Part shown: piece by piece, positions 1 through 12,529 of the stretch
Layout of the letters: every line of letters starts with the position of its first letter
Position numbering within the stretch: the first letter of the stretch is position 1
Translations under genes and position numbers: made by a program
The notes under the pieces: model-generated
Seen by the model: only the letters and a program-made list of their open reading frames with translations
Told to the model about the DNA's origin: nothing
Databases searched by the model: none
NCBI GenBank assembly: GCA_964464475.1
Contig: CAYXGG010000004.1
Coordinates: forward strand, 70,940-131,673
From: an uncultured Planctomycetales bacterium
GTDB lineage: Bacteria; Omnitrophota; Gorgyraeia; Zapsychrales; JAHFFX01
DNA: 60,734 nucleotides
Direction: 5' to 3'

Positions 1-346
1 GCAGCAGACGAGAATGAATTTGGGAAGGGGAATGTCGGTGAAAATCCAAAAAGGAGAGTCTCAGGATATGGTCCAAAGTCCTTTCTCGTAAATCTCGAAC
101 CACCTTCTCTCCGACTCCATAAACGAGATAACCGCGAACAAAATTGGCCACGGCCTTAACAAGCAAACTGCCCAACATCAATCCCAGAAGCAATCCCCCG
201 TAACTGACCGAACCGGAAATGAGCCCGTCCAGGACAAACTTCAGACCCCAAGGAAAAATCAGTGTGCACCCATTAGCCACAAGCGTCAACAACAGAATAC
301 ACGCAATCACCTTTGCGTAGGGACGCAAAATAAAAATTATTTTCAT
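1..346 (-). CDS. ABC exporter, fused TMD-NBD type (N-terminal part only; gene continues past the left window edge)
   Basis: Absent from the ORF track because it is truncated. ATG at 344..346 overlaps the TGA of the rSAM gene (ATGA). My translation is MKIIFILRPYAKVIACILLLTLVANGCTLIFPWGLKFVLDGLISGSVSYGGLLLGLMLGSLLVKAVANFVRGYLVYGVGEKVVRDLRERTLDHILRLSFLDFHRHSPSQIHSRLL. This looks like the first TM helices and the (F.D....G.l.SRL) region of a type-I ABC exporter. There is no C39 peptidase domain at the N-terminus. Confidence 0.6.
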   Translation of the reverse strand, partial: MKIIFILRPYAKVIACILLLTLVANGCTLIFPWGLKFVLDGLISGSVSYGGLLLGLMLGSLLVKAVANFVRGYLVYGVGEKVVRDLRERTLDHILRLSFLDFHRHSPSQIHSRLL

Positions 347-1734: not shown

Positions 1735-1755
1735 AGCTTCCTCCTTTGGGAGTGA

Positions 1756-1791
1756 ATCGGCGCGATCCGGAAAGCTCCGGATCGCGCCGAT
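1756..1791 (-). promoter_or_regulatory. intercistronic stem-loop between the precursor ORF and the maturase (16-bp perfect stem, 4-nt loop)
   Basis: atcggcgcgatccgga (1756-1771) pairs perfectly with tccggatcgcgccgat (1776-1791), with loop aagc. No U-tract follows on the minus strand. The maturase SD starts about 8 nt after the stem. Confidence 0.5.
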
Positions 1792-1806: not shown

Positions 1807-1920
1807 TTATTCTTCGTCGCTAACTTCACGCAAGAATGAATTCATTGTGCCCGGTGGCCAGCAGCAACCCAACGCGGCGAGGTCCTTTAACTTCTCTGAT
1901 CCTTGATTGATCACTTCCAT
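1807..1920 (-). CDS. candidate RiPP precursor peptide, 37 aa (unannotated, below the ORF-track length cutoff)
   Basis: Hand translation gives MEVINQGSEKLKDLAALGCCWPPGTMNSFLREVSDEE followed by TAA. GGAGG lies 5 nt 5' of the ATG (gcgaaaGGAGGtagtgATG). The ORF lies 72 nt 5' of the rSAM/SPASM gene on the same strand. Confidence 0.55.
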   Translation of the reverse strand: MEVINQGSEKLKDLAALGCCWPPGTMNSFLREVSDEE

Positions 1921-1944
1921 CACTACCTCCTTTCGCTATGCGGT

Positions 1945-1985: not shown

Positions 1986-3707
1986 TCACTCAGCCCAATA
2001 CCAATCCTTCATCTCATAAGTTGGCATAAAACGACTGAAATAGGACTCAACACCTTCCAAATTGTCTCGGATAGCCGAATAGCTAATGGGATAAAAAAGA
2101 AAACAAACTGGTTGCTCGACGATAATCACCTGGTGAATTTGTTGAAACAATCTATTACGGGTCTCATCATTTTTTTCCAATCTGACTTTAGTCAGGAGCG
2201 CATCTAGCTGAGAGTTGCGATACTCCCATAATCGACCCACCTGACCGGAGGAGGATGACCAATCATCCGCCACTTCAAAATCCCGCAAATCGTAACCCGC
2301 AAAAAAACGCAACCACGCTTGGACCCCATGTTCCCGCAAAAAAGAAGCGGTCAATTGTTCATCATTATTGTATCGAACTAAATTCAACTTAATTCCCACC
2401 TGAGAGAGTTGTTGCCGCATCTGTGCTGCAATATCCAGCATGACCGGGCTACGCTCATCAACCAGGAGTTTAAGCGTTAAACTCTTACCGGATTTTTCTA
2501 CCGTCCCATCGTTGTCATGGTCTATCCAACCCCTATGATTTAGGAGAATGTTGGACTTAGTAGGATTATAAATTCGATCAATTCTTGATGATTCCCAACC
2601 ATCAAAACGAGTTCTAAACGGCCCCTCGCTCACCACCCCACTGATATCGGTCAAACTCGAGAGCAATTCCCCTCGGTTAATCGCATGAGCGATGGCCTGC
2701 CGGATCTCTATTTGACTAAGCAAAGGATCTCCCAAGTTGTAAACCATCGCGCAATAAAACCCTAAGTCCACCGAGTAACTATTAAAATGTTCATCTTTTC
2801 TAATTAGTTCAAAATCAGCTTGGCGAATGAATTGCACCAGATCGACTTCATTGCGCATCAGTGCGGAAAATAATTGAGCGCTGTCCTGATACACGGCAAC
2901 AATAACTTGATCCAAATAGGGCCGACCTTCAAAGTAATCATCAAAAGCAGCCAGCTTAATCCGTCCGTCCGCCTTGTCCCAAGACACAAAACGAAAAGGT
3001 CCGGTCCCAATCGGAAATTCATTAAAACTCGCTTCTGCCAAATCCTTCCCCATCAACAAATGCCGCGGCATAATTCCATAGGCAATCTTATTAATAAATA
3101 ACGGATTAGGTTCAGACAGAACTACTTCAAATGTATATTCATCAACTACTCTTAATTCTTTGACCAAAGAGAAATTAGGCAAAAAGGGAGAATTATTTTG
3201 GGGGTTCAATAATTGTTCGAAGGTGAATTTAACATCTTCGGCCGTGCATTCCTCGCCATCATGAAACATCACTCCTTGTCGTAAAAGAAAACGATAGATC
3301 AATCCATCGGCGGAGACGGTCCATTCTCGGGCTAGATCCGGCTCCCATTCTCCCCGACTATTAATACGCACTAGTCGATTAAAAATCAAATCCAGTAAAT
3401 TCATAGAAATACTGTGCGTTGTTAACACCGGATTAATAATAGTGGGTTGATGATATACGCCCCAGACCAGATCGCCACCGTAGCGGTTGGCCTTGGCAAC
3501 AACGTGAGGGCTACGGCTTTCCCCATCTGATTCGGCAAGCAAAGGTTCACAAGTAAGTCCTCCTGAAACCACCGCTAACAATGTCAAACCAAATGCGAAC
3601 TTGATTATCTTTATCAATTGAACATGGGCGACTTTTCTTAAAGGACTCAAGGGAGGACAACACAATATGGCAGAAAAGGCCCTTAAAGAATTGAAAGTAT
3701 GGCACAT
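1986..3707 (-). CDS. ABC-type periplasmic solute-binding protein, family 5 (OppA/DppA/NikA-like), orphan
   Basis: About 570 aa with the length and sequence character of family-5 SBPs (GGDLVWG....INP; RLV..N..GE..PDLA..W..S.DG..Y.F.LR.GV.FHDG). The start is uncertain: TTG 3710, ATG 3707, or an internal TTG near 3617 that would give a signal peptide MIKIIKFAFGLTLLAVVSG. No cognate permease or ATPase genes are adjacent. Confidence 0.8.
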   Translation of the reverse strand: MCHTFNSLRAFSAILCCPPLSPLRKVAHVQLIKIIKFAFGLTLLAVVSGGLTCEPLLAESDGESRSPHVVAKANRYGGDLVWGVYHQPTIINPVLTTHSISMNLLDLIFNRLVRINSRGEWEPDLAREWTVSADGLIYRFLLRQGVMFHDGEECTAEDVKFTFEQLLNPQNNSPFLPNFSLVKELRVVDEYTFEVVLSEPNPLFINKIAYGIMPRHLLMGKDLAEASFNEFPIGTGPFRFVSWDKADGRIKLAAFDDYFEGRPYLDQVIVAVYQDSAQLFSALMRNEVDLVQFIRQADFELIRKDEHFNSYSVDLGFYCAMVYNLGDPLLSQIEIRQAIAHAINRGELLSSLTDISGVVSEGPFRTRFDGWESSRIDRIYNPTKSNILLNHRGWIDHDNDGTVEKSGKSLTLKLLVDERSPVMLDIAAQMRQQLSQVGIKLNLVRYNNDEQLTASFLREHGVQAWLRFFAGYDLRDFEVADDWSSSSGQVGRLWEYRNSQLDALLTKVRLEKNDETRNRLFQQIHQVIIVEQPVCFLFYPISYSAIRDNLEGVESYFSRFMPTYEMKDWYWAE

Positions 3708-3856
3708 CAAAATAAACCTAGTTGGGCTTAAGTTAATTTAAACATAATTGATTGCAAGTAAATGGCTATTCTCCGCCATTCACTAACTTTATTCACTGTT
3801 GTCTTTAAATTGACAAACGAACCAAGCCGGCCTGCCTCAATAAGCAAGATTACACG

Positions 3857-4046: not shown

Positions 4047-5984
4047 TTAAAATTCGAGGCTAAAGCCCCCTTCAAAATACCGACGGGGTAGAGGAAAATC
4101 AATATTGGACCAGTACTTGCTATTGGTGAGATTATGAATGCTGAAGAAAATTTTTCCATCCACATTGGCCCAAAAATCAACAAAGGCTTGTGATAGCTTA
4201 AAATCCCAAATGGGCTTGCGATCATTGGCCCTTAACGACGGCTCCGAACTCCAGCGGTTATATTGACCCAAAAGCTCGGCACTAAAACCCGTCACGCTAT
4301 GAAAATGCGCAGCTAACGAATATTTCTGCCGGGCGATTCCTTGATCACGCACGGAGCGACCTGTTTGCCGATTTTCCACATCATTAAATGCGCCGCTGGC
4401 CGAAAAAGACAGGGTCTCGGACCAATCGTAATCGAACGTCAACTCCGCTCCCTGCCGACGAAACTTACTAAAGTTTCTTTGTACATAGTAATTGGTAATA
4501 GGATCCTGGACCAACGCGATCGCGTCCCGGACATCTGACAAATAAAAATTAAGGTCCATGTTAAAATCATCCCCAAAAACGGTACTTCCCCCTAACTCGT
4601 ATACAGTGGCGCGCTCTGCTTCTAAATCGGGATTGGCCCCCACTTGAAATCCCGGATCAAAGTTATAAATCCACATCAAAGGTGGCGCGTTAAACACCCG
4701 GGAAATTTTTCCTCTGACCGAAGTCTCCGGCAGCTGGGCAAAACGATAGACCGACGCGAAACTAGGACTGGTTTGACTTCCGAATTGATCATTGCGGTCA
4801 TAACGAATGCCTGGGACAAATTCCCAGCCATTAACTTCTAACGAATAGTTCGCGAAAGGCGCCTGGGCGCTAATACCTTTGGCTTCAGACAAATAGCGAT
4901 TGGACTTGATCGTATGCCAATCAAAATCAGCGCCCATTACCAAAGCTCCAAAATCCGCAAAATCCTTATGACCATTAAGACTGATCCCTCGATAAAAATT
5001 ATTACTGATGGTCTCGAATTGCGACGCATTCGTTGAGACTGACTTTGTGTCGGTCGTAATATCTTGATGGTTAAACTTTAAAGCCACACTAAGAACATCG
5101 TCCCCATCCTCTCTGGAAAGGATCACTTGCCCGTAGCGCGCGTAATAAGGTTGAGTGGAATAATTGCTTGCCGTCTTTAACCCGTACTGAGCGAACGCGT
5201 CGTGATATCCGAACGTGCTTTGGATAATTCCCAAATCGCCTATAGGCAGGGACAATTTAGTCAACACACTCTTTTTTTCAGCCTCGCCAAATCGCTGAGG
5301 TCCATCGGTTTTATAATAACTTCCACTGGCGAAATAGCCCAATTCCTTAACTGATCCGGCTAGCGACAAACTCTCTTGAAACGTACCGAATTCCGCGAAC
5401 GAGCTGTTAAATTGACCGCTGACACGTTCCCCACCAGCGCTTTTGGTAATCACATTGACCACCCCGCCTAAACTAGAACCCCACGCGCTGGAAGCGCCGC
5501 CCTTAATGATCTCCACGCGTTCAATCATTTCCACAGGTATGGCGGAAGGATTAGCCTGCCCCGACAGTTGGGTATTGAAAGGAATGCCGTCAATCAACAG
5601 CAAAACTTGACGCGCATTGGAACCATTGAGAGATAACGCGGTCGATTGGCCGAATTGTCCATTCAATTGCACATCGATCGCGGGAGAATACGACAATACT
5701 TCGGTCAAATCCCGTGCCGGCAGTCGCTCAATGTCTTCGGCGGTAATTATCTCAACTTGTTCTGGACTATGTCGGGATTTACTTGGAGCACGGCGGGCCG
5801 TCACCACGACCGTATTTAATTCGTACAAAAATTTTGGCTTAATTTCAGCACTCTTAGAGGAAGGGGAAAAAGATGGTGAAGAACTGCTTAGGACAGCACT
5901 GTTTGCGTGTACTTGCCTACCCTGCAGAAAAACTTGTAAGACCATAATGACCCAAAAAATTCTTAATGCCTGACGAAACCTCAT
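4047..5984 (-). CDS. TonB-dependent outer-membrane receptor
   Basis: Signal peptide, then a plug region (VVVTARR...IERLPARDLTEVL...LNG...LIDGIP) and GGASSAWGSSLGGVVNVITK. It has a long beta-barrel and a C-terminal aromatic residue (..GGFSLEF). Confidence 0.9.
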   Translation of the reverse strand: MRFRQALRIFWVIMVLQVFLQGRQVHANSAVLSSSSPSFSPSSKSAEIKPKFLYELNTVVVTARRAPSKSRHSPEQVEIITAEDIERLPARDLTEVLSYSPAIDVQLNGQFGQSTALSLNGSNARQVLLLIDGIPFNTQLSGQANPSAIPVEMIERVEIIKGGASSAWGSSLGGVVNVITKSAGGERVSGQFNSSFAEFGTFQESLSLAGSVKELGYFASGSYYKTDGPQRFGEAEKKSVLTKLSLPIGDLGIIQSTFGYHDAFAQYGLKTASNYSTQPYYARYGQVILSREDGDDVLSVALKFNHQDITTDTKSVSTNASQFETISNNFYRGISLNGHKDFADFGALVMGADFDWHTIKSNRYLSEAKGISAQAPFANYSLEVNGWEFVPGIRYDRNDQFGSQTSPSFASVYRFAQLPETSVRGKISRVFNAPPLMWIYNFDPGFQVGANPDLEAERATVYELGGSTVFGDDFNMDLNFYLSDVRDAIALVQDPITNYYVQRNFSKFRRQGAELTFDYDWSETLSFSASGAFNDVENRQTGRSVRDQGIARQKYSLAAHFHSVTGFSAELLGQYNRWSSEPSLRANDRKPIWDFKLSQAFVDFWANVDGKIFFSIHNLTNSKYWSNIDFPLPRRYFEGGFSLEF

Positions 5985-6124: not shown

Positions 6125-9121
6125 TTACCTTTTTAAGAATCCATTCTTCCGCCTTTTTTGCCACCAATATAGCAACATGAAAAACAGTAACCAGAAAGAA
6201 GGCTCCGGGACATTATATTCTTCTTCAAACTCCAATCCGGCTGAGGTTTTTATTCGTTGACGCTCTTTTTCTTTAAGAATTTTCCATTGCGAAGACCGTT
6301 CCAAAACAATAAAAGAGGTCGAGGGAATTAATACCGTAGCACTTTTACTGTCCGCAACCAATTGAGCAAGCTGCCGATCAATAGCGACCGGATTTAATAA
6401 AGCCATTTCATTACTCTGCCGCAACAATATTCCCCGATTATAAATTGAATCTTTAGAAACCTTAACGACTTCACCCATGGGAATAAATTTTTGAATATTT
6501 GAATCAAAAACCTCCCAGAGCGCCTCACTTCCGTCCTCCACAAAAGCCACTTGCCCCGCTGCCCCAGAGGCATCCACCTTTGATAGCAGGCCATTCTTTC
6601 TTAACACGATCCACGAACGGGCCATGCTCTTGGTCGCACTATTTGGATTTCTGCGTAGTTGCCCATCTCTTCCCAACACATAATAATTCTCGGCCTCAGG
6701 GTAAAAACCTCGTGACCAAATAGCTTTTTCGGATCTTAGAACTTTATCTTCCGCAGATGTAATAAATACAAAAATTGGCTCCGATAATACGCTACTGACA
6801 TTTTCCTTGTCCCACGCCATCTTGGCTTCAAAGACCAGCTGGCGAATGACCCGATCCAAATCCACCCCTCCCCGAGAATAAATTTTTCTTTGTGCGGCCG
6901 ACCATTGCTCCGCCAGTCTTTCAACCGGAATCATCGTTTCACTTATTGAAACGGTGTCTAAATTCGCTAACGTGACTCGACAATAACGTACGTCGGGAAA
7001 ATTCTGAACAGCGGCCTGCATCAACGCCAAATATTTCTTCTCATCCCAGGCCTTTGTGCCTAATGAATGATCCAAAATAAAATGAATATACGGAACTCGA
7101 TTGACTTGAGGTAGACGTTGGATCATCGGCGAGGGTAAAACAAGTGCGCTGGATTTTCCATCTGACAAAGATATCGGCTTTAACTGTTGAGTCTCACCAG
7201 TGGCTTCATTTAAAACGATCTCTTGCTCTTGCAATCTAACTTTAGGAAATATCCCCTTAGGATAAAGAAAATCAATCTGCACCACCCGCTCTTCCCCCGC
7301 TGCGAAAGGGAAGACATTTAAACTTAATTCACCAGGGGCGACGTATTTCAGTAACCCGGGATCTCGTCTAGTCCGGTCACGAATCATGTGATAGACCCAT
7401 TCCGCGGCCCGCCGCTCGAAGATTTGCCCCGGAACTATTTCCTCTCCAATCTTCAAACTAAAACCTGTAATGATCACTTCCTCAGGGACTATCAATGAAC
7501 CTTCAAACTCCGAGTTGATGACCCCGCTATTATTTTTAAGCACTAAGTTGAGTTGACTGCGATGCCAGGGACCTTCGACGCTTTCCCTCACGGACGTGCT
7601 AAGCACTGACACTTTTCTTTGTTCTTCTGTGGGTGGAGAATTAACACCTCTTTCACTCCACCACCGCCCCCGCATATCTTTATTCAATCCCCAAAAATGA
7701 TTCTGTTTTAACGGAGGAAGGTCTTCTCCGATAAAGAATTTGAATAAGTAATCAATTTTCTTATCAGGCAAAACCATGTTCTCAAAAACGATATGATTAT
7801 AAATTCCCGAAAGATAAGGTAACTGTAAACCGTATTTGAATTCTTTAAGATTGATGAGCGTCGCGCGTAACGCTTGCGGATTGCCTTGAAAGGAACGGTC
7901 TTTGCCGGCGAAATCAGGTGCATAAGCATAACGCAGGGCCTCTTTCAAATTAACCTTGGCATAAAACGCTTCTGCCACAAAATAAGTCGGAAATACCAGG
8001 ATTCCGGCTAATCCCAAAACAACCGTCCAGCGCAAACCGACCTGTCTTTGGGTTGCAAGAGCGTCCTGCCACCATCGTTGCGCGTGGATCATAAAAAGAA
8101 ATACCGGCACCAGAAAAAGAATGCCCGCACCTAATGCGAACATGGCCGGCAAAGCCAACGGTAAAAATGGCAAAAAAACTAAAAAGAAATAAAAGCTAAA
8201 CGGGAAAAAGATGCTGCGCGCCAAAAAAATCCACATACTATTTGAGAAACTTTTGTCCGTAGAAACGATCAACAATAATCCGTTAATAAGTGCTAAAACA
8301 TAAACCCACGGTGATTGAAAATCTGCCGGGAACGGGATTTGGCGATTCAGCATTAACCCACCGATGGGGCCGGCAATGCCTATAATCGCGTACAATAACG
8401 TTTGCCCCCAGCGGGCCCGAGCTTGCAGCGAATGATAAATCAAAACCAGCAAGCGGATCAACGCCATACAACTTAACAGAGTCAAGAGAACAAAGAATCC
8501 CGTGGCCACCAACGCCGGCCAACGAAAATTCCAGCGAGATATGAGGAAAAGCACGTAATAGGCTGCCGGTGCTAGCACCGCGATGCTGATGGTTCTGAAA
8601 TATTCGTCTTTGCGCGACCACCCCCAAGAAAAACAAGCTAATCGAACACCGCAATAGAAAATAGCGGGCATCATAAAAGTGAATTGCTGTAACGTCCAAT
8701 CTCCGGAATCTAAAATCCAGGGCTCAATGCTGCTGGGCAAAATACGAAATTGATGCGTCGCCCAAAACCACAAGTAGCCCACGCACCCCAACAACATCGC
8801 CGCGCACCATTTCCAAAACTGGCTACCTTGACCCCGATGTGCCTTCCCCCACGCAACAAAAGCTAAACCTAACAAAAACACTTCCCAACTCAAACTCATA
8901 AGAATCAACTGCCGAGCAGAAAACGAAAATAAATCAAAATAATTAACGTTACCTAACAAGTCCTTCGTGGCCGTCTCATCCCAAATGATCCCGTAGGCCC
9001 GCCCATTAATGAGGAGTAGGACCAATTGCGGCAACAGGCAGGTCCACCACCAACACGCAGGATGGTTGAAGATCGTCGGTAATAATGAATTAGGACTTTT
9101 CAAAGAAGATTGTTGTTCCAT
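6125..9121 (-). CDS. polytopic membrane protein with VIT-like domain and C-terminal PEP-CTERM sorting signal (exosortase substrate)
   Basis: The N-terminal ~400 aa are very hydrophobic with many TM helices. The central region resembles a VIT domain (ITGFSLKIGEEIVPGQIFERRAAEWVY...DPGLLKY..PGELSLNVFPFAAGEERVVQIDFLYP). The C-terminus NVPEPSFWLLFFMLLYWWQKRRKNGFLKR reads as PEP, then a TM helix, then a basic cluster. The ORF track starts at TTG 9157. The first ATG is 9121, which overlaps the exosortase stop by 32 nt. Confidence 0.75.
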   Translation of the reverse strand: MEQQSSLKSPNSLLPTIFNHPACWWWTCLLPQLVLLLINGRAYGIIWDETATKDLLGNVNYFDLFSFSARQLILMSLSWEVFLLGLAFVAWGKAHRGQGSQFWKWCAAMLLGCVGYLWFWATHQFRILPSSIEPWILDSGDWTLQQFTFMMPAIFYCGVRLACFSWGWSRKDEYFRTISIAVLAPAAYYVLFLISRWNFRWPALVATGFFVLLTLLSCMALIRLLVLIYHSLQARARWGQTLLYAIIGIAGPIGGLMLNRQIPFPADFQSPWVYVLALINGLLLIVSTDKSFSNSMWIFLARSIFFPFSFYFFLVFLPFLPLALPAMFALGAGILFLVPVFLFMIHAQRWWQDALATQRQVGLRWTVVLGLAGILVFPTYFVAEAFYAKVNLKEALRYAYAPDFAGKDRSFQGNPQALRATLINLKEFKYGLQLPYLSGIYNHIVFENMVLPDKKIDYLFKFFIGEDLPPLKQNHFWGLNKDMRGRWWSERGVNSPPTEEQRKVSVLSTSVRESVEGPWHRSQLNLVLKNNSGVINSEFEGSLIVPEEVIITGFSLKIGEEIVPGQIFERRAAEWVYHMIRDRTRRDPGLLKYVAPGELSLNVFPFAAGEERVVQIDFLYPKGIFPKVRLQEQEIVLNEATGETQQLKPISLSDGKSSALVLPSPMIQRLPQVNRVPYIHFILDHSLGTKAWDEKKYLALMQAAVQNFPDVRYCRVTLANLDTVSISETMIPVERLAEQWSAAQRKIYSRGGVDLDRVIRQLVFEAKMAWDKENVSSVLSEPIFVFITSAEDKVLRSEKAIWSRGFYPEAENYYVLGRDGQLRRNPNSATKSMARSWIVLRKNGLLSKVDASGAAGQVAFVEDGSEALWEVFDSNIQKFIPMGEVVKVSKDSIYNRGILLRQSNEMALLNPVAIDRQLAQLVADSKSATVLIPSTSFIVLERSSQWKILKEKERQRIKTSAGLEFEEEYNVPEPSFWLLFFMLLYWWQKRRKNGFLKR

Positions 9122-9641
9122 GGGGACGAAACCTTTCCAAAATGATTGAATAGCCAATAAGCAAACTTAAAAAAACACTGATTCCCACGCCTTGATGCAG
9201 AGCGCCCATATACAGGCTTGGCAAAACCGGCTTAAGCCAACTCTCGACATAAAATAAAGAAATGATCCTTAAACTATTAGCTAAAATTGTCAGCAAGTAA
9301 CCCATGCCTAATCCTAACAACAGGCGTCGCGGCATAAACCAAGAAAGTCGATCATAATCATAAAAAAGCCAGACACCCACTGTCAGGGCGAAGAAGTTTA
9401 TCCCTATACAGGCCGGCACAATCTGAATCAACCCCGCCCCCAAAGGTAGGACATAATAATTTTCCGCATTCATTCGTGGATCCACGCCAAAGAAAAAACC
9501 AACCAGGTGCGCGGTTGGACAAGCAAAAAAAGAATAGAAGATAGGTTCGAATTTGGAAAGAAAATGGGCGAGTCCGGCGCTCACCGCCAAAGCCACGACC
9601 GCCGGGCTCGCCCTTCCCACCTTTAATAAAACGGCCTTCAT
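9090..9641 (-). CDS. minimal exosortase-family transpeptidase (183 aa)
   Basis: Hydrophobic multi-TM protein carrying the exosortase/archaeosortase Cys-Arg-His signature in order: IQIVPACIGINFF, LTILANSLRIISLF, GALHQGVGISVF. Its ATG overlaps the upstream stop (ATGA). Confidence 0.7.
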   Translation of the reverse strand: MKAVLLKVGRASPAVVALAVSAGLAHFLSKFEPIFYSFFACPTAHLVGFFFGVDPRMNAENYYVLPLGAGLIQIVPACIGINFFALTVGVWLFYDYDRLSWFMPRRLLLGLGMGYLLTILANSLRIISLFYVESWLKPVLPSLYMGALHQGVGISVFLSLLIGYSIILERFRPHGTTIFFEKS

Positions 9642-9895: not shown

Positions 9896-11263
9896 TTAAC
9901 GCCAATAATCTTTATTCAGCCAACCCTGAAAAGAGTTCCATAACAAATAACCTGACATCATCAATAACACGGCGATTTGCCCAAGCATCACGCTTACCGT
10001 AAAAGCGCCACAGGAATAGATCATAAATAGTAGTAGCATTCCTAATAAGAAACCATGCCCCGTGATCCAGCCGACATTATCCACACAGGACAAACGCAAC
10101 AGCCAGGCCAAAGCGACCAACCCCACCACGCCCGTCAACAGCAACAAAATCCAGAACCTTACTTCGCCAAAAATTTCCGGTTCGACAAAAAATTGCGGCA
10201 ATAGCCCAAAGCAGATAACGAATAGTAACCAACATTCAAAATATCCTACCAATAATGATAAACCCATTTGTTGGCTCCATTGCCTTCGGGTGATTGGTTT
10301 AAGCAAATCATATCCCCACGCAGACAACCGACGTGGCTGACTCCAAAGCAATAACAAAACGGGCGTTGTCGATAACAACAAAAAATTAGCGAAAGGATTA
10401 CCCCAACGCAACCACTGACTTTGGTCTGAGTTAAAAAAATAACTATACGCGGGCCAAAGCAACAACATCACGACCCATAAGCCGGAATAATTAAAGAATC
10501 CAGCACGGTTCCAATGCTGAGCTTGTGCCAAAAGATTCCCTGCCCTTGGGAAAGGAGGCATCTCTAAAACAGTCTTTGATTTAAAGATTTTCCCCCAATG
10601 AATAAACCCTGCGGGGGCTCGCCATCGAGTCATTCGCTCGATAGGCCAAGACAACAGATAATCAAACTCCCACCGCTCTTCTTTAATCAGGAATAACCTC
10701 ATCACCAAAGACCCTAACAGGGCATAAAACGCCAGTTGAAACAATAAAGAGACTTCGGTGTTAACATCGAGCCAAGCTAAAAGAGGATGGAAAAATATCG
10801 CCAAAATCATTAACCCCGCGTAGGCGTATAACAGCAAAGAGGGAATAGATAAATATCCCAACCACATCAGAACTGCGCCAAAGAACAAACTACCCCAGAA
10901 AACCGCTGCTAAATTCTTGCAAACCAAAGTTAATGTTGATTGAGACAACCATCCCCAACAGAAAATCATCATGACCCCCAATGACAACAAAATCGCGATA
11001 GCGATTAAATGACGCGACCGATAATGCGGCAACAAGCTAGCCGCTGACCGTGTAAATTGAGATTTCAACAAAATTCCAAAATGAAAGCTTAACCACATCC
11101 CAGACATCAACAGTAAAGTAAAAAAATCATCGGCCAAGGCATCATAACGCTGACTCAAAGCCCATAAGGAGCTAAGCAAAGCGCCGAGGAAAATAGTAAC
11201 CGCAAGGCCAATGACCGGCTGTTTGGCATATAATCCCCAAATGGGTCTTAATGACTGAATCAT
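9896..11263 (-). CDS. polytopic membrane protein, putative permease partner of the adjacent ABC ATPase
   Basis: About 455 aa and almost entirely hydrophobic helices. ATG 11263 overlaps the ATPase TGA (cgATGAttcag), which suggests translational coupling. I recognise no motif. Confidence 0.5.
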   Translation of the reverse strand: MIQSLRPIWGLYAKQPVIGLAVTIFLGALLSSLWALSQRYDALADDFFTLLLMSGMWLSFHFGILLKSQFTRSAASLLPHYRSRHLIAIAILLSLGVMMIFCWGWLSQSTLTLVCKNLAAVFWGSLFFGAVLMWLGYLSIPSLLLYAYAGLMILAIFFHPLLAWLDVNTEVSLLFQLAFYALLGSLVMRLFLIKEERWEFDYLLSWPIERMTRWRAPAGFIHWGKIFKSKTVLEMPPFPRAGNLLAQAQHWNRAGFFNYSGLWVVMLLLWPAYSYFFNSDQSQWLRWGNPFANFLLLSTTPVLLLLWSQPRRLSAWGYDLLKPITRRQWSQQMGLSLLVGYFECWLLFVICFGLLPQFFVEPEIFGEVRFWILLLLTGVVGLVALAWLLRLSCVDNVGWITGHGFLLGMLLLFMIYSCGAFTVSVMLGQIAVLLMMSGYLLWNSFQGWLNKDYWR

Positions 11264-12138
11264 CGATGTAACTCCAAGAATATCTCTTCCAGATTTAAAT
11301 CTTCGACCGAGACCTGAGCCGACCATCGCGCTTGCAAGTCGGTAATCAACGCTTCATTAAAATTCCTAACAGTTAATAACGCTTGGGCCCCCTGTATCTC
11401 CGAATGCATGATTCCCGGAATGGGCAACAAAGCGGATAGATCACGGTCACTATGTCCGCGCAACCTCTTAACCGTGTCCTTTAAATCATCCGTCTCTCCA
11501 TAAAAAGACACGGTTCCCCTCTTAAGCAGCACCACCCGATCAGCGACCCTTTCCAAATCCGAAGTGATATGCGTTGAAAAAACAATTGTGCAAGCACGCG
11601 TATTGATAATGTTTAACAAAGTCTTTAAAAAATTCCTACGGGACAACGGATCCAAACTTGCCACCGGCTCATCTAAGATCAACAATTCTGGTTCATGTCC
11701 CAAGGCCAATAAAATCATGACCATTTGCAATTGACCTTCCGAAAGCTCACCCATCTTTTGATCCCTAGACAATTCCCACTCATTTAATAAACGGTCTACT
11801 AACGAATGGTTCCAACGCTGATAAAACGACGCGGTGTAATTCACTAGTTCGATGACCGAAAGCCAAGAATAAACACGTTCGGACTGTGGCACGTAACCGA
11901 TTCGCTCTTTAGCTGCCGCGGAGAAAACCCAAGGGTTCTCTCCTAATGTCATGACCGTTCCTGAACTGGCTTTCATCAGCCCCAACAAGCATTTCATCAG
12001 AGTCGTCTTACCAGCCCCATTTTTCCCCAACAACCCCACCACTGTTCCTCTGGGGATTTGAAAGGATATCTCATTAAGTATTGATCGGTTCCCATAACTC
12101 TTGCTGAGTTGCGTACATTCAATCATTGAATCATTCAT
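11260..12138 (-). CDS. ABC transporter ATP-binding protein (YtrB-like)
   Basis: Walker A GKNGAGKTT, signature LSEGQLQ, Walker B LLILDEP. It overlaps the GntR gene stop by 8 nt. Confidence 0.9.
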   Translation of the reverse strand: MNDSMIECTQLSKSYGNRSILNEISFQIPRGTVVGLLGKNGAGKTTLMKCLLGLMKASSGTVMTLGENPWVFSAAAKERIGYVPQSERVYSWLSVIELVNYTASFYQRWNHSLVDRLLNEWELSRDQKMGELSEGQLQMVMILLALGHEPELLILDEPVASLDPLSRRNFLKTLLNIINTRACTIVFSTHITSDLERVADRVVLLKRGTVSFYGETDDLKDTVKRLRGHSDRDLSALLPIPGIMHSEIQGAQALLTVRNFNEALITDLQARWSAQVSVEDLNLEEIFLELHR

Positions 12139-12529
12139 TATTGTCCCTCCAAAGTTGTTCCCATAATTGCTGTACTTTCTTTCTATCTAACTGCAGCTGA
12201 TGCGCTCGACGGATCACTTCCTCTATATAAGGGACGATCTCTTCCTGCCGCTGAACGGATGATTTCCTCAAAGGAGCTATCGGGGCCAGTCGCATGCCTT
12301 CCCCGCGCACAAACTCCAGAACACCCTCTTTTTCCAATAATGAATAGGCCTTAGATACCGTCATGGGATTAATTTCTAAGGCCTCGGCTACTTGTCGGAC
12401 CGAAGGTAAGAATTCCTCCGCAGGCAGTCGTTCTGTCGCCGCGAGAATTTTGACCTGGTCCATCAATTGTCGATAAATAGGCACCCCCGAAGAGGGGGAA
12501 ATTTGAAATAAATGTTTGATATTGGTCAT
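12131..12529 (-). CDS. GntR-family transcriptional regulator, short YtrA-like subfamily
   Basis: 132 aa with a winged-helix region (PIYRQLMDQVK......LPSVRQVAEALEINPMTVSKAYSLLEKEGVLE.VRG.G). It has only a short C-terminal region and is followed by an ABC ATPase, as in ytrA-type operons. Confidence 0.85.
   Translation of the reverse strand: MTNIKHLFQISPSSGVPIYRQLMDQVKILAATERLPAEEFLPSVRQVAEALEINPMTVSKAYSLLEKEGVLEFVRGEGMRLAPIAPLRKSSVQRQEEIVPYIEEVIRRAHQLQLDRKKVQQLWEQLWRDNNE

Follow-up and report, generated by a model that had tools for sequence, protein, structure and literature searches.

Our analysis concerns a window of 60,734 nt from an uncultured bacterium (contig CAYXGG010000004.1, positions 70,940 to 131,673), near the left end of which a small open reading frame (ORF) of 37 codons lies directly upstream of a gene for a radical S-adenosylmethionine (rSAM) enzyme with a SPASM domain. 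An initial annotation of the same DNA had proposed this ORF as the likely precursor of a ribosomally synthesised and post-translationally modified peptide (RiPP). In the direction of transcription, the ORF is preceded by genes for an outer-membrane receptor and a periplasmic binding protein, and it is followed by a strong hairpin, the rSAM gene and the beginning of an exporter gene (Table 1).

The sequence reads as described: the ORF runs on the minus strand, a point that the initial annotation did not specify, from an ATG at 1920-1918 to a TAA at 1809-1807, and its product, MEVINQGSEKLKDLAALGCCWPPGTMNSFLREVSDEE, is identical to the translation given in the initial annotation. The well-spaced Shine-Dalgarno sequence claimed for it is also there, with 5 nt (TAGTG) between the GGAGG and the ATG, and orthologous ORFs are likewise preceded by AAGGAGG-type sites, visible as an in-frame 'KGG' before the Met. 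An alternative in-frame GTG at 1923, one codon 5' of the ATG, would give a product of 38 aa; we prefer the ATG because the GTG lies only 2 nt from the Shine-Dalgarno sequence. On the other side, 72 nt separate the stop codon (1807) from the ATG of the rSAM gene (1734) on the same strand.

Table 1. Features of the peptide locus, with positions in the window
Feature	Position	Strand	Basis
Putative precursor peptide gene, 37 codons + TAA	1807..1920	minus	translation, homologous ORFs, codon analysis
Shine-Dalgarno sequence GGAGG	1926..1930	minus	sequence read
Leader-like half of the peptide	codons 1-18, 1920-1867	minus	translation, alignment
Conserved core CCWPPGT	codons 19-25, 1866-1846	minus	translation, alignment
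Variable acidic tail	codons 26-37, 1845-1810	minus	translation, alignment
16-bp GC-rich hairpin, no T-run, between peptide stop and rSAM start	1756..1791	minus	RNA fold
Radical SAM/SPASM peptide maturase (predicted), 463 aa	343..1734	minus	NCBIfam TIGR04280 best match, Pfam Radical_SAM, AF2 model
ABC exporter, N-terminal 115 codons, fused membrane + ATPase type, cut by the window edge	1..346	minus	sequence, clustering
Periplasmic solute-binding protein, family 5 (Opp/Nik/App-like), start uncertain	1986..3710	minus	Pfam SBP_bac_5, 241 bits
TonB-dependent outer-membrane receptor	4047..5984	minus	Pfam Plug + TonB_dep_Rec_b-barrel

Conservation of the small gene and anatomy of its product

Related loci were gathered by scanning genomes and metagenomes with the rSAM protein as the query and by looking up its closest homologues; the contig scans returned mostly unrelated SPASM enzymes, and about 15 useful loci came from them. 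The enzymes of the related loci are 36-69% identical to the window's rSAM protein, and most of the loci are from Candidatus Omnitrophota bins, with a few from Planctomycetota, several unclassified and a single one from Auribacterota, an outlier without the CCWPP core found in the window. Four loci whose maturases are 29-33% identical (L083, L084, L098 and L167) had no recognisable Cys-Cys peptide upstream and were left out of the set, and P0002 and P0004 stand outside it because there was either no DNA or a contig beginning at the rSAM gene.

Twenty independent related loci have a homologous ORF of 29-41 codons directly 5' of, and co-oriented with, the rSAM gene; examples are MDIIQEGKTDIKEMAALGCCWPPGTQNMQLTEPEED (L002), MDIINYGSDDLNEMAALSCCWPPGSETTRFPTN (L003) and MKIIRKGSDRAVEPKGCCWPPGSLGSRHP (L005). 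The initial annotation had named conservation of the reading frame as a check to make, and across these 20 loci we saw neither a frameshift nor an internal stop. When a profile of the peptide was run against six-frame segments of 245 loci and the window, it gave exactly one match in each of the 21 family members (window included) and no match outside those 21 segments.

The pattern of substitution is that of a translated gene under purifying selection. In a codon alignment of 11 loci with the CCWPP core, pairwise divergence summed to 13.6, 9.9 and 20.7 at codon positions 1, 2 and 3, and the invariant Gly, Cys, Cys and Pro columns are written with 4, 2, 2 and 4 different codons, respectively. 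The ratio of nonsynonymous to synonymous divergence (dN/dS, NG86), a second check that had been suggested, rests on the 15 pairs with unsaturated dS, dS being saturated in 30 of 45 pairs; its median is 0.33 for the whole ORF, with all pairs below 1, and 0.21 for leader plus core. Moreover, a profile search of a 5.8-billion-protein collection, with a 20-sequence alignment headed by a 41-aa orthologue as the query, returned 34 protein clusters, all of them unnamed or labelled 'hypothetical protein'. Since these clusters include the window's own product, the ORF has already been called by gene callers, on this contig among others, and the earlier description of it as unannotated holds for its missing name and not for the call.

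Could the ORF be a chance open frame in an intergenic spacer? It is short, its length of 37 codons being by itself within chance, and the peptide has no match in Pfam. At the same time, the frame recurs in 20 loci and 34 public clusters behind a rightly spaced Shine-Dalgarno sequence, dN/dS lies below 1 and the invariant residues are encoded with synonymous variation, so that the comparative data refute this explanation and leave it a practically negligible probability. It is this conservation that establishes the ORF as a gene: as judged from the comparison of sequences, it is a real, conserved and translatable small gene paired with a radical SAM enzyme of the peptide-maturase type. Other searches of the surrounding DNA were negative: sigma-70 promoter sites were fewer than in shuffled controls, with none usable 5' of the ORF, Rfam identified no known RNA family in the intergenic regions or elsewhere in the window, and a tRNA scan of the window found none.

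In an alignment of 20 peptides, invariance is confined to G7 and the two cysteines, C19 and C20. The consensus for the close clade reads M-E-[IV]-I-x-x-G-[STK]-[DE]-D-[ILV]-x-E-[ML]-A-A-L-[GS]-C-C-W-P-P-G-[TS], followed by a tail that varies in length and sequence and is often rich in Pro and Glu. Nearly all of the 34 public clusters carry CCWPP and then G[T/S]; the residue after the two prolines is usually Gly, with Met, Leu, Phe or Ala occurring as well, and almost all members of the CCWPP clade have a Thr or Ser five residues on from the second Cys (+5). Sister clades have other cores, among them CCFPTGT, CCFPAGT, CCIPGA, CCPPMT, CCKQGP, CCGFDVS, CCRIGA and CCPSSTS, and what remains constant across the superfamily is an N-terminal [IV][IV]xxG leader, a spacer of about 9-12 residues and the Cys-Cys pair. 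The division of the peptide first proposed, a leader-like half ending in Gly and a CC-W-PP-G-T core with an acidic tail, needs correcting in two places: leader and core are present as described and are conserved, the latter within the clade, whereas the Gly at position 18 can be Gly, Ser or Asn and the tail is variable.

Two candidate features of the peptide were rejected on the same alignment. Cleavage of the leader at G18 by a Gly-type signal was one of them, because position 18 varies; the other was a Cys-Trp cross-link as the family-defining reaction, given that the Trp is replaced by Phe, Tyr or Ile or is absent in sister clades. We also noted one public homologue, P0124 (41 aa, on a 763-bp ENA contig), in which the N-terminus occurs twice, MEVINQEMEVINQG..., as the result of either a tandem 21-nt duplication or an assembly artefact.

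Between the peptide gene and the rSAM gene, the RNA is predicted to fold into a hairpin of -41.9 kcal/mol (z = -5.5; 0 of 200 shuffles fold as well), and a smaller palindrome at 1792-1807 precedes it. Most of the 21 family loci (window included) have a strong hairpin at this position, with z <= -3.5 in 14 of the 21, and its sequence is not conserved; in L003, L165, L169 and L172 it is followed by T-runs like those of intrinsic terminators. In RiPP operons a hairpin after the precursor gene is the usual device by which the precursor message is kept in excess, and we infer that this one is a partial terminator or an mRNA-stabilising element raising the ratio of precursor to enzyme transcript. 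A separate, small hairpin (1741-1753, minus strand) adjoins the large one: the rSAM Shine-Dalgarno sequence (GGAGG, 1745-1741) is paired, in the predicted fold, with a CUCC just 5' of it, which might damp translation of the enzyme or be due to chance.

The hairpin also raises the question of whether the ORF is a cis-regulatory leader peptide, functionless as a product, on which ribosomes stall at the Cys-Cys or WPPG codons and thereby control the hairpin and expression of the rSAM gene. Two Cys codons in tandem, and those of a Pro-Pro-Gly run, which belongs to a type of sequence known to stall ribosomes, do lie 5' of a very stable hairpin, and the hairpin is there in most orthologous loci. However, the Pro-Pro-Gly codons (1857-1849) are about 58 nt 5' of the hairpin (1791-1756), too far for a stalled ribosome to act on it, and the Pro pair is not kept in sister clades (CCFPTG, CCFPAG, CCKQG, CCRIG); for these two reasons we consider such a leader peptide very improbable. 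In addition, the N-terminal leader motif and its spacing to the Cys pair are conserved, which an arrest peptide would not need, and the downstream enzyme has a putative peptide-recognition domain and belongs to peptide-maturase families.

The maturase and its pairing with the peptide

The rSAM protein carries the CX3CX2C motif as C104-X3-C108-X2-C111, which is invariant among 32 homologues. The same 32 homologues share the SPASM cysteines (C340-X14-G355-X4-C360 and C395-X3-C399-X5-C405-X3-C409), and C426 is nearly invariant among them. In an AlphaFold (AF2) model with a pLDDT of 88.9, a beta-beta-beta-alpha-alpha-alpha domain stands N-terminal to the barrel, and the model suggests that it is an RRE-like domain for peptide recognition. 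The top Foldseek matches were structures of CteB (5WHY and 5WGG; 18% sequence identity, TM 0.64-0.70 over about 470 columns, the whole length of the protein), followed in order by TigE (8VPO), anSME, ChlB and SkfB, and a sequence search of the PDB gave the same ranking. CteB carries, besides its RRE, a pair of auxiliary clusters, and a cysteine of the substrate is bound by one of these; the thioether made by CteB joins Cys32 to Thr37, and a later assignment placed the bond at the gamma carbon of the Thr (PMC8172795).

Among NCBIfam models, TIGR04280 ('geopeptide radical SAM maturase') was the best match (259.9 bits, full length), and the next were TIGR04463, CefB, Clo7bot, PapB, CcpM, QhpD and the SCIFF maturase, all of them models of maturases of Cys-rich peptides. 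Related enzymes are numerous: in the maturase search, at least 120 clusters of proteins reached an identity of 41% to the window enzyme.

The ORF had been put forward as the likely precursor of the adjacent radical SAM enzyme, and the comparison bears this out as far as sequence can: the two genes occur together in each family locus that extends 5' of the enzyme gene, the peptide is under purifying selection and combines a leader with a CCWPPG[T/S] core, and the enzyme is predicted to be of the RRE-like/SPASM type. We consider it very probable that the ORF encodes the genuine precursor of this maturase.

Gene neighbourhood and relation to the geopeptide system

The ATG of the ABC exporter gene (346-344) overlaps the TGA of the rSAM gene (345-343). 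Its truncated product clusters with proteins of 570-595 aa encoded 3' of the rSAM gene in related loci. It begins directly with membrane helices and has no N-terminal C39 peptidase domain, as the initial annotation had pointed out; full-length orthologues of about 578 aa agree with this, the one in L243 consisting of ABC_membrane (17-285) and ABC_tran (347-496) and no other domain.

The closest solved structures of the SBP_bac_5 protein are 8EFZ, 4OET, which we take to be the nickel-binding protein NikZ of Campylobacter, and 1XOC (AppA). Against NCBIfam models the protein scored 161.7 bits with the nickel-type NF045468 and 155.1 bits with Opp4A. No cognate permease genes for it were found within the cluster, and no inner-membrane importer is among the genes conserved across clusters.

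Read 5' to 3', the order in the clade is TonB-dependent receptor, SBP_bac_5 protein, peptide, hairpin, rSAM enzyme, ABC exporter and then two-component genes, which encode a dCache/HAMP histidine kinase, an AraC-domain response regulator and a single-domain response regulator. In three of these clusters an HD-GYP-type (HD_5) protein is encoded directly 5' of the receptor (L002:51-1421, L243:1-1358, L244:651-2021), which hints at a link to cyclic-di-GMP; in the window that place is taken by MSEP-CTERM genes.

Homology to a family known from database models emerged from the peptide as well as from the enzyme. Residues 2-21 of the window peptide align with positions 2-19 of the 22-position profile TIGR04229 ('geopeptide') at 16.4 bits (E = 0.0058), where the curated cut-off is 30 bits; that of TIGR04280, the best model for the enzyme, is 400 bits. 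Maturases that do pass TIGR04280 (535-586 bits) were found in L169 (Nitrospiraceae), L172 (Desulfobacteraceae) and L085. The entire TIGR04229 profile is matched by the L085 peptide, with 23.5 bits, and the peptides of all three loci follow the same leader-spacer-CC plan as the window peptide. A further scan added 80 geopeptide-proper loci from Nitrospirota, Geobacteraceae and Desulfobacterota, and a pattern search recovered peptides of the form ...I[IV]VL[DK]xG-(10-14)-CC-(8-11) in 63 of them. In seven of the geopeptide-proper loci (L249, L250, L256, L262, L264, L279 and L287) a long Lys/Ala-rich N-terminus preceding the Cys pair replaces the I-V-V-L leader, as in ...AAKKGAKAKKKVVKKGGAKKSSVKIACCPGGAGASRR. 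By these matches the window system is homologous to the geopeptide system and forms a clade of its own with a CCWPPG[T/S] core, found mainly in Omnitrophota and in a few Planctomycetota bins. The core had been described as belonging to no recognised RiPP class, which is too strong in view of this distant relationship to geopeptide and TIGR04280, yet both partners fall under the cut-offs.

Neighbouring genes were compared between the two clades by tblastn, the counts being lower bounds because many loci are incomplete. A TonB-dependent receptor was present in 72/80 geopeptide-proper loci and in 13/17 loci of the window clade, and a histidine kinase in 46/80 and 14/17, respectively. The binding proteins divide cleanly: a PF04392 protein occurs in 58/80 geopeptide-proper loci and in 0/17 of the window clade, and SBP_bac_5 in 0/80 and 14/17, in the latter directly 5' of the peptide gene. 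The ABC exporter was found in only 4/80 geopeptide-proper loci as against 14/17. As an example of the first group, L169 has the order TonB-dependent receptor, peptide, rSAM enzyme, PF04392 binding protein, HAMP kinase and sigma-54 regulator.

Because receptor, binding protein and kinase are present in both clades, their link to the peptide is older than the split between the clades. The gene content suggests that the binding-protein family was exchanged after that split and that the exporter is specific to the window clade. PF04392 (ABC_sub_bind; L169:7697-8434 and 58/80 of L246-L325) and SBP_bac_5 (window 1986-3710) are unrelated families serving in the same module, and the swap looks like a non-homologous replacement of one part of it.

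Other genes around these clusters are described here for completeness. Just 5' of the peptide cluster in L327 (1061-5137) are genes for a TonB-dependent receptor, a DUF4154 (PF13689) periplasmic protein, a CHASE8 histidine kinase and a response regulator, a second module with the same receptor-periplasmic protein-kinase logic and no peptide gene. Directly 5' of the TonB-dependent receptor in the window (6125-9641, minus) lie genes for a 1010-aa MSEP-CTERM sorting-domain protein with a VIT domain (TIGR04286, 415 bits) and, beside it, a 183-aa exosortase-family protein (XrtK 47.2 bits, cut-off 55); this pair is not in orthologous clusters and is probably unrelated. Farther on (9896-12529, minus) are a GntR-type regulator (132 aa), an ABC ATPase (292 aa, best match PmtA-like) and a 476-aa polytopic membrane protein without a family match, a three-gene set resembling an ABC-2-type export module.

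Putative chemistry and role, and comparison with known systems

Taken as a whole, the reading that we favour, and regard as reasonably probable, is that the small gene encodes the precursor of a modified peptide in a divergent branch of the geopeptide family, which would acquire a thioether, be exported and be perceived in the periplasm. The hairpin after the peptide stop would keep the precursor message in excess over that of the enzyme, and the leader would dock on the RRE-like N-terminal domain of the maturase. The core would then be modified at its Cys pair by means of a 5'-deoxyadenosyl radical. One or two Cys-derived thioethers would be the likeliest product, given that Cys-rich peptides are the substrates of the nearest families and that no solved structure is closer than CteB. 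We put the chances for thioether chemistry at the Cys pair at about even. The leading candidate for the acceptor would be Thr/Ser25, at i+5 from Cys20, since this spacing equals that of Cys32 and Thr37 in the CteB substrate.

The translationally coupled ABC exporter would secrete the product, any removal of the leader falling to a protease encoded elsewhere. The product would re-enter the periplasm through the co-encoded TonB-dependent receptor and be bound there by the SBP_bac_5 protein, and its presence would be reported to the dCache histidine kinase and the AraC-type response regulator. That export of the product takes place and is followed by its perception by way of the receptor, the binding protein and the kinase seems to us slightly on the probable side. 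Its preferred role is that of a self-made extracellular ligand perceived in the periplasm; we favour a signalling peptide, with a metal-carrying peptide as the main alternative. Signalling is favoured over a metal role because the clusters are rich in signalling genes and without an importer, and because the binding protein is always near a kinase despite the change of its family.

The metal-carrying alternative would use the same precursor and enzyme to make a metallophore for copper, nickel or zinc, which would be exported, loaded with metal and re-imported through the TonB-dependent receptor to the SBP_bac_5 protein. Vicinal cysteines are soft-metal ligands, and those of the peptide are invariant; moreover, the SBP_bac_5 protein scores best on nickel-type models and has 4OET among its closest solved relatives. 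The gene module also parallels that of the methanobactin operon, with its TonB-dependent transporter MbnT, periplasmic binding protein MbnE, precursor MbnA, enzymes MbnBC and exporter MbnM (PMC7558416). On the other hand, thioether formation, if it occurs, would consume the thiols, and the cluster is without an inner-membrane importer or a metal-release gene. Signalling genes are unusually abundant in the clusters, which encode a dCache kinase, 2-3 response regulators and, in L002, L243 and L244, an HD-GYP protein, and which have no Fur-, ECF- or metal-type regulator. In geopeptide-proper loci the binding protein is of a different family (PF04392), beside a kinase and with no exporter, and MbnE is not among the 60 listed solved relatives of the SBP_bac_5 protein. 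On balance we think a metallophore unlikely, though an alternative to be taken seriously.

Alternatively, the peptide could be a secreted antimicrobial, with an exporter used for secretion or for immunity, and with neighbours (receptor, binding protein, kinase) that are unrelated or only regulatory. Many rSAM/SPASM peptides (sactipeptides, darobactin, dynobactin) are antibiotics, the weaker matches of the enzyme include DynA as well as the SCIFF, PapB and CcpM maturases, and the exporter, present after the enzyme in 14/17 window-clade loci, is a dedicated one. But it is the receptor, binding protein and kinase that are linked to peptide and enzyme across at least four phyla; the exporter is not (4/80 geopeptide-proper loci). 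Nor did we find a conserved immunity gene or leader peptidase, and the core is very short and strongly conserved, and is not diversified in the manner of many bacteriocins. An antimicrobial role appears improbable on these grounds.

Several observations weigh against the favoured reading of a thioether-bearing peptide perceived in the periplasm, all of whose steps beyond a conserved gene beside a maturase are what we infer. The window's peptide and enzyme both score under the NCBIfam cut-offs (16.4 vs 30 and 259.9 vs 400 bits). The kinase and regulators are seen only in orthologous loci and in the window would lie past its left edge. Beyond the Cys pair no core residue is invariant across the superfamily, and because the Thr/Ser at +5 is missing in L163, L166 and L169, a Cys-to-Thr link is not the family-wide reaction. 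TigE, the second-closest structure, is a cyclopropylglycine synthase (PMC10878394), so that the fold by itself does not fix the chemistry. Finally, the SBP_bac_5 protein resembles nickel binders and peptide binders about equally, and therefore favours neither a signal nor a metallophore.

The geopeptide family is computationally defined, with no product, reaction or role on record, and in the literature that we searched no paper mentions geopeptide, TIGR04280 or TIGR04229, and nothing relevant was found on PF04392 with TonB or on Omnitrophota rSAM RiPPs. If our assignment is correct, a well-populated clade from uncultured bacteria is added to a family that has so far consisted of two database models, and an ORF of fewer than 60 aa deserves to be called and named. 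The Cys-Cys pair, the short core and the linkage to receptor, binding protein and kinase lead to testable predictions on the chemistry and on peptide perception, and bear on the way in which cells bounded by an outer membrane might sense a peptide of their own making, one presumably too large for porins.

A bolder, joint proposal, which we advance tentatively as possible, is that the Cys-Cys peptides form a new radical-SAM class and are at once the ligands of a new outer-membrane-gated perception pathway. Their defining reaction could be intrinsic to the vicinal cysteines, as opposed to a sacti- or ranthi-type link to a fixed acceptor, and the pathway could perceive a self-made peptide through a dedicated TonB-dependent receptor, interchangeable SBP_bac_5 or PF04392 binding proteins and a histidine kinase. 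If true, the cells would be gating peptide quorum sensing, or the sensing of a metallophore, at their outer membrane. In any case the system offers a solid starting point for studies of radical-SAM peptide chemistry and of an unusual perception module, its function and chemistry being putative.

Among characterised systems, CteA-CteB (SCIFF/ranthipeptide, thermocellin) offers the closest solved structure, including the N-terminal peptide-recognition domain; its substrate likewise contains Cys, and the spacing of Cys20 and Thr25 in the window peptide equals that of Cys32 and Thr37 in CteA (PMC8172795). The initial annotation had set the peptide apart from the six-Cys SCIFF pattern, rightly so: it has two Cys and not six in 45 residues, the enzyme scores 99.4 bits with TIGR03974 against a cut-off of 425, and the context of TonB-dependent receptor, binding protein and kinase is unlike that of clostridial SCIFF loci. 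The same comparison covers the related thioether-forming SPASM maturases PapB, CefB and QhpD. Darobactin had also been set apart, and it and dynobactin do differ, the W-x-W-x-K-type core motif being absent from the window peptide and the enzyme reaching 99.5 bits with the DynA model NF041298 (cut-off 450).

The methanobactin operon shares the logic of the gene set, namely a TonB-dependent receptor, an Opp/App-family binding protein, a Cys-containing precursor, a modifying enzyme and an exporter, and it too has no cognate inner-membrane importer. The parts differ: the window enzyme is of the radical SAM/SPASM type in place of MbnB/MbnC, the exporter is of the ABC and not the MATE type, and regulation in the window clade is by two-component genes, not by a sigma/anti-sigma pair. 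No MbnB (DUF692/MNIO) or MbnC domains were found in conserved neighbours, the rSAM protein being the sole enzyme between binding protein and exporter.

The nearest relative is the geopeptide system itself. The window clade differs from it in the CCWPPG[T/S] core and a longer tail that is often acidic or Pro-rich, in having SBP_bac_5 and not PF04392 as the binding protein, in the added ABC exporter and in its hosts, which are mainly Omnitrophota and Planctomycetota bins as opposed to Nitrospirota, Geobacteraceae and Desulfobacterota. The regulator is of the AraC type in L243, L244, L326 and L327 and of the sigma-54 type in L169, the one geopeptide-proper locus annotated for it. At the same time, both systems have a peptide with a hydrophobic N-terminal [IV][IV]xxxG leader, a spacer of about 10-14 residues, an invariant Cys-Cys pair and a short tail, a hairpin 3' of the peptide gene, maturases homologous over their full length, a TonB-dependent receptor upstream and a periplasmic binding protein nearby, together with a histidine kinase that in the window clade is seen in orthologous loci.

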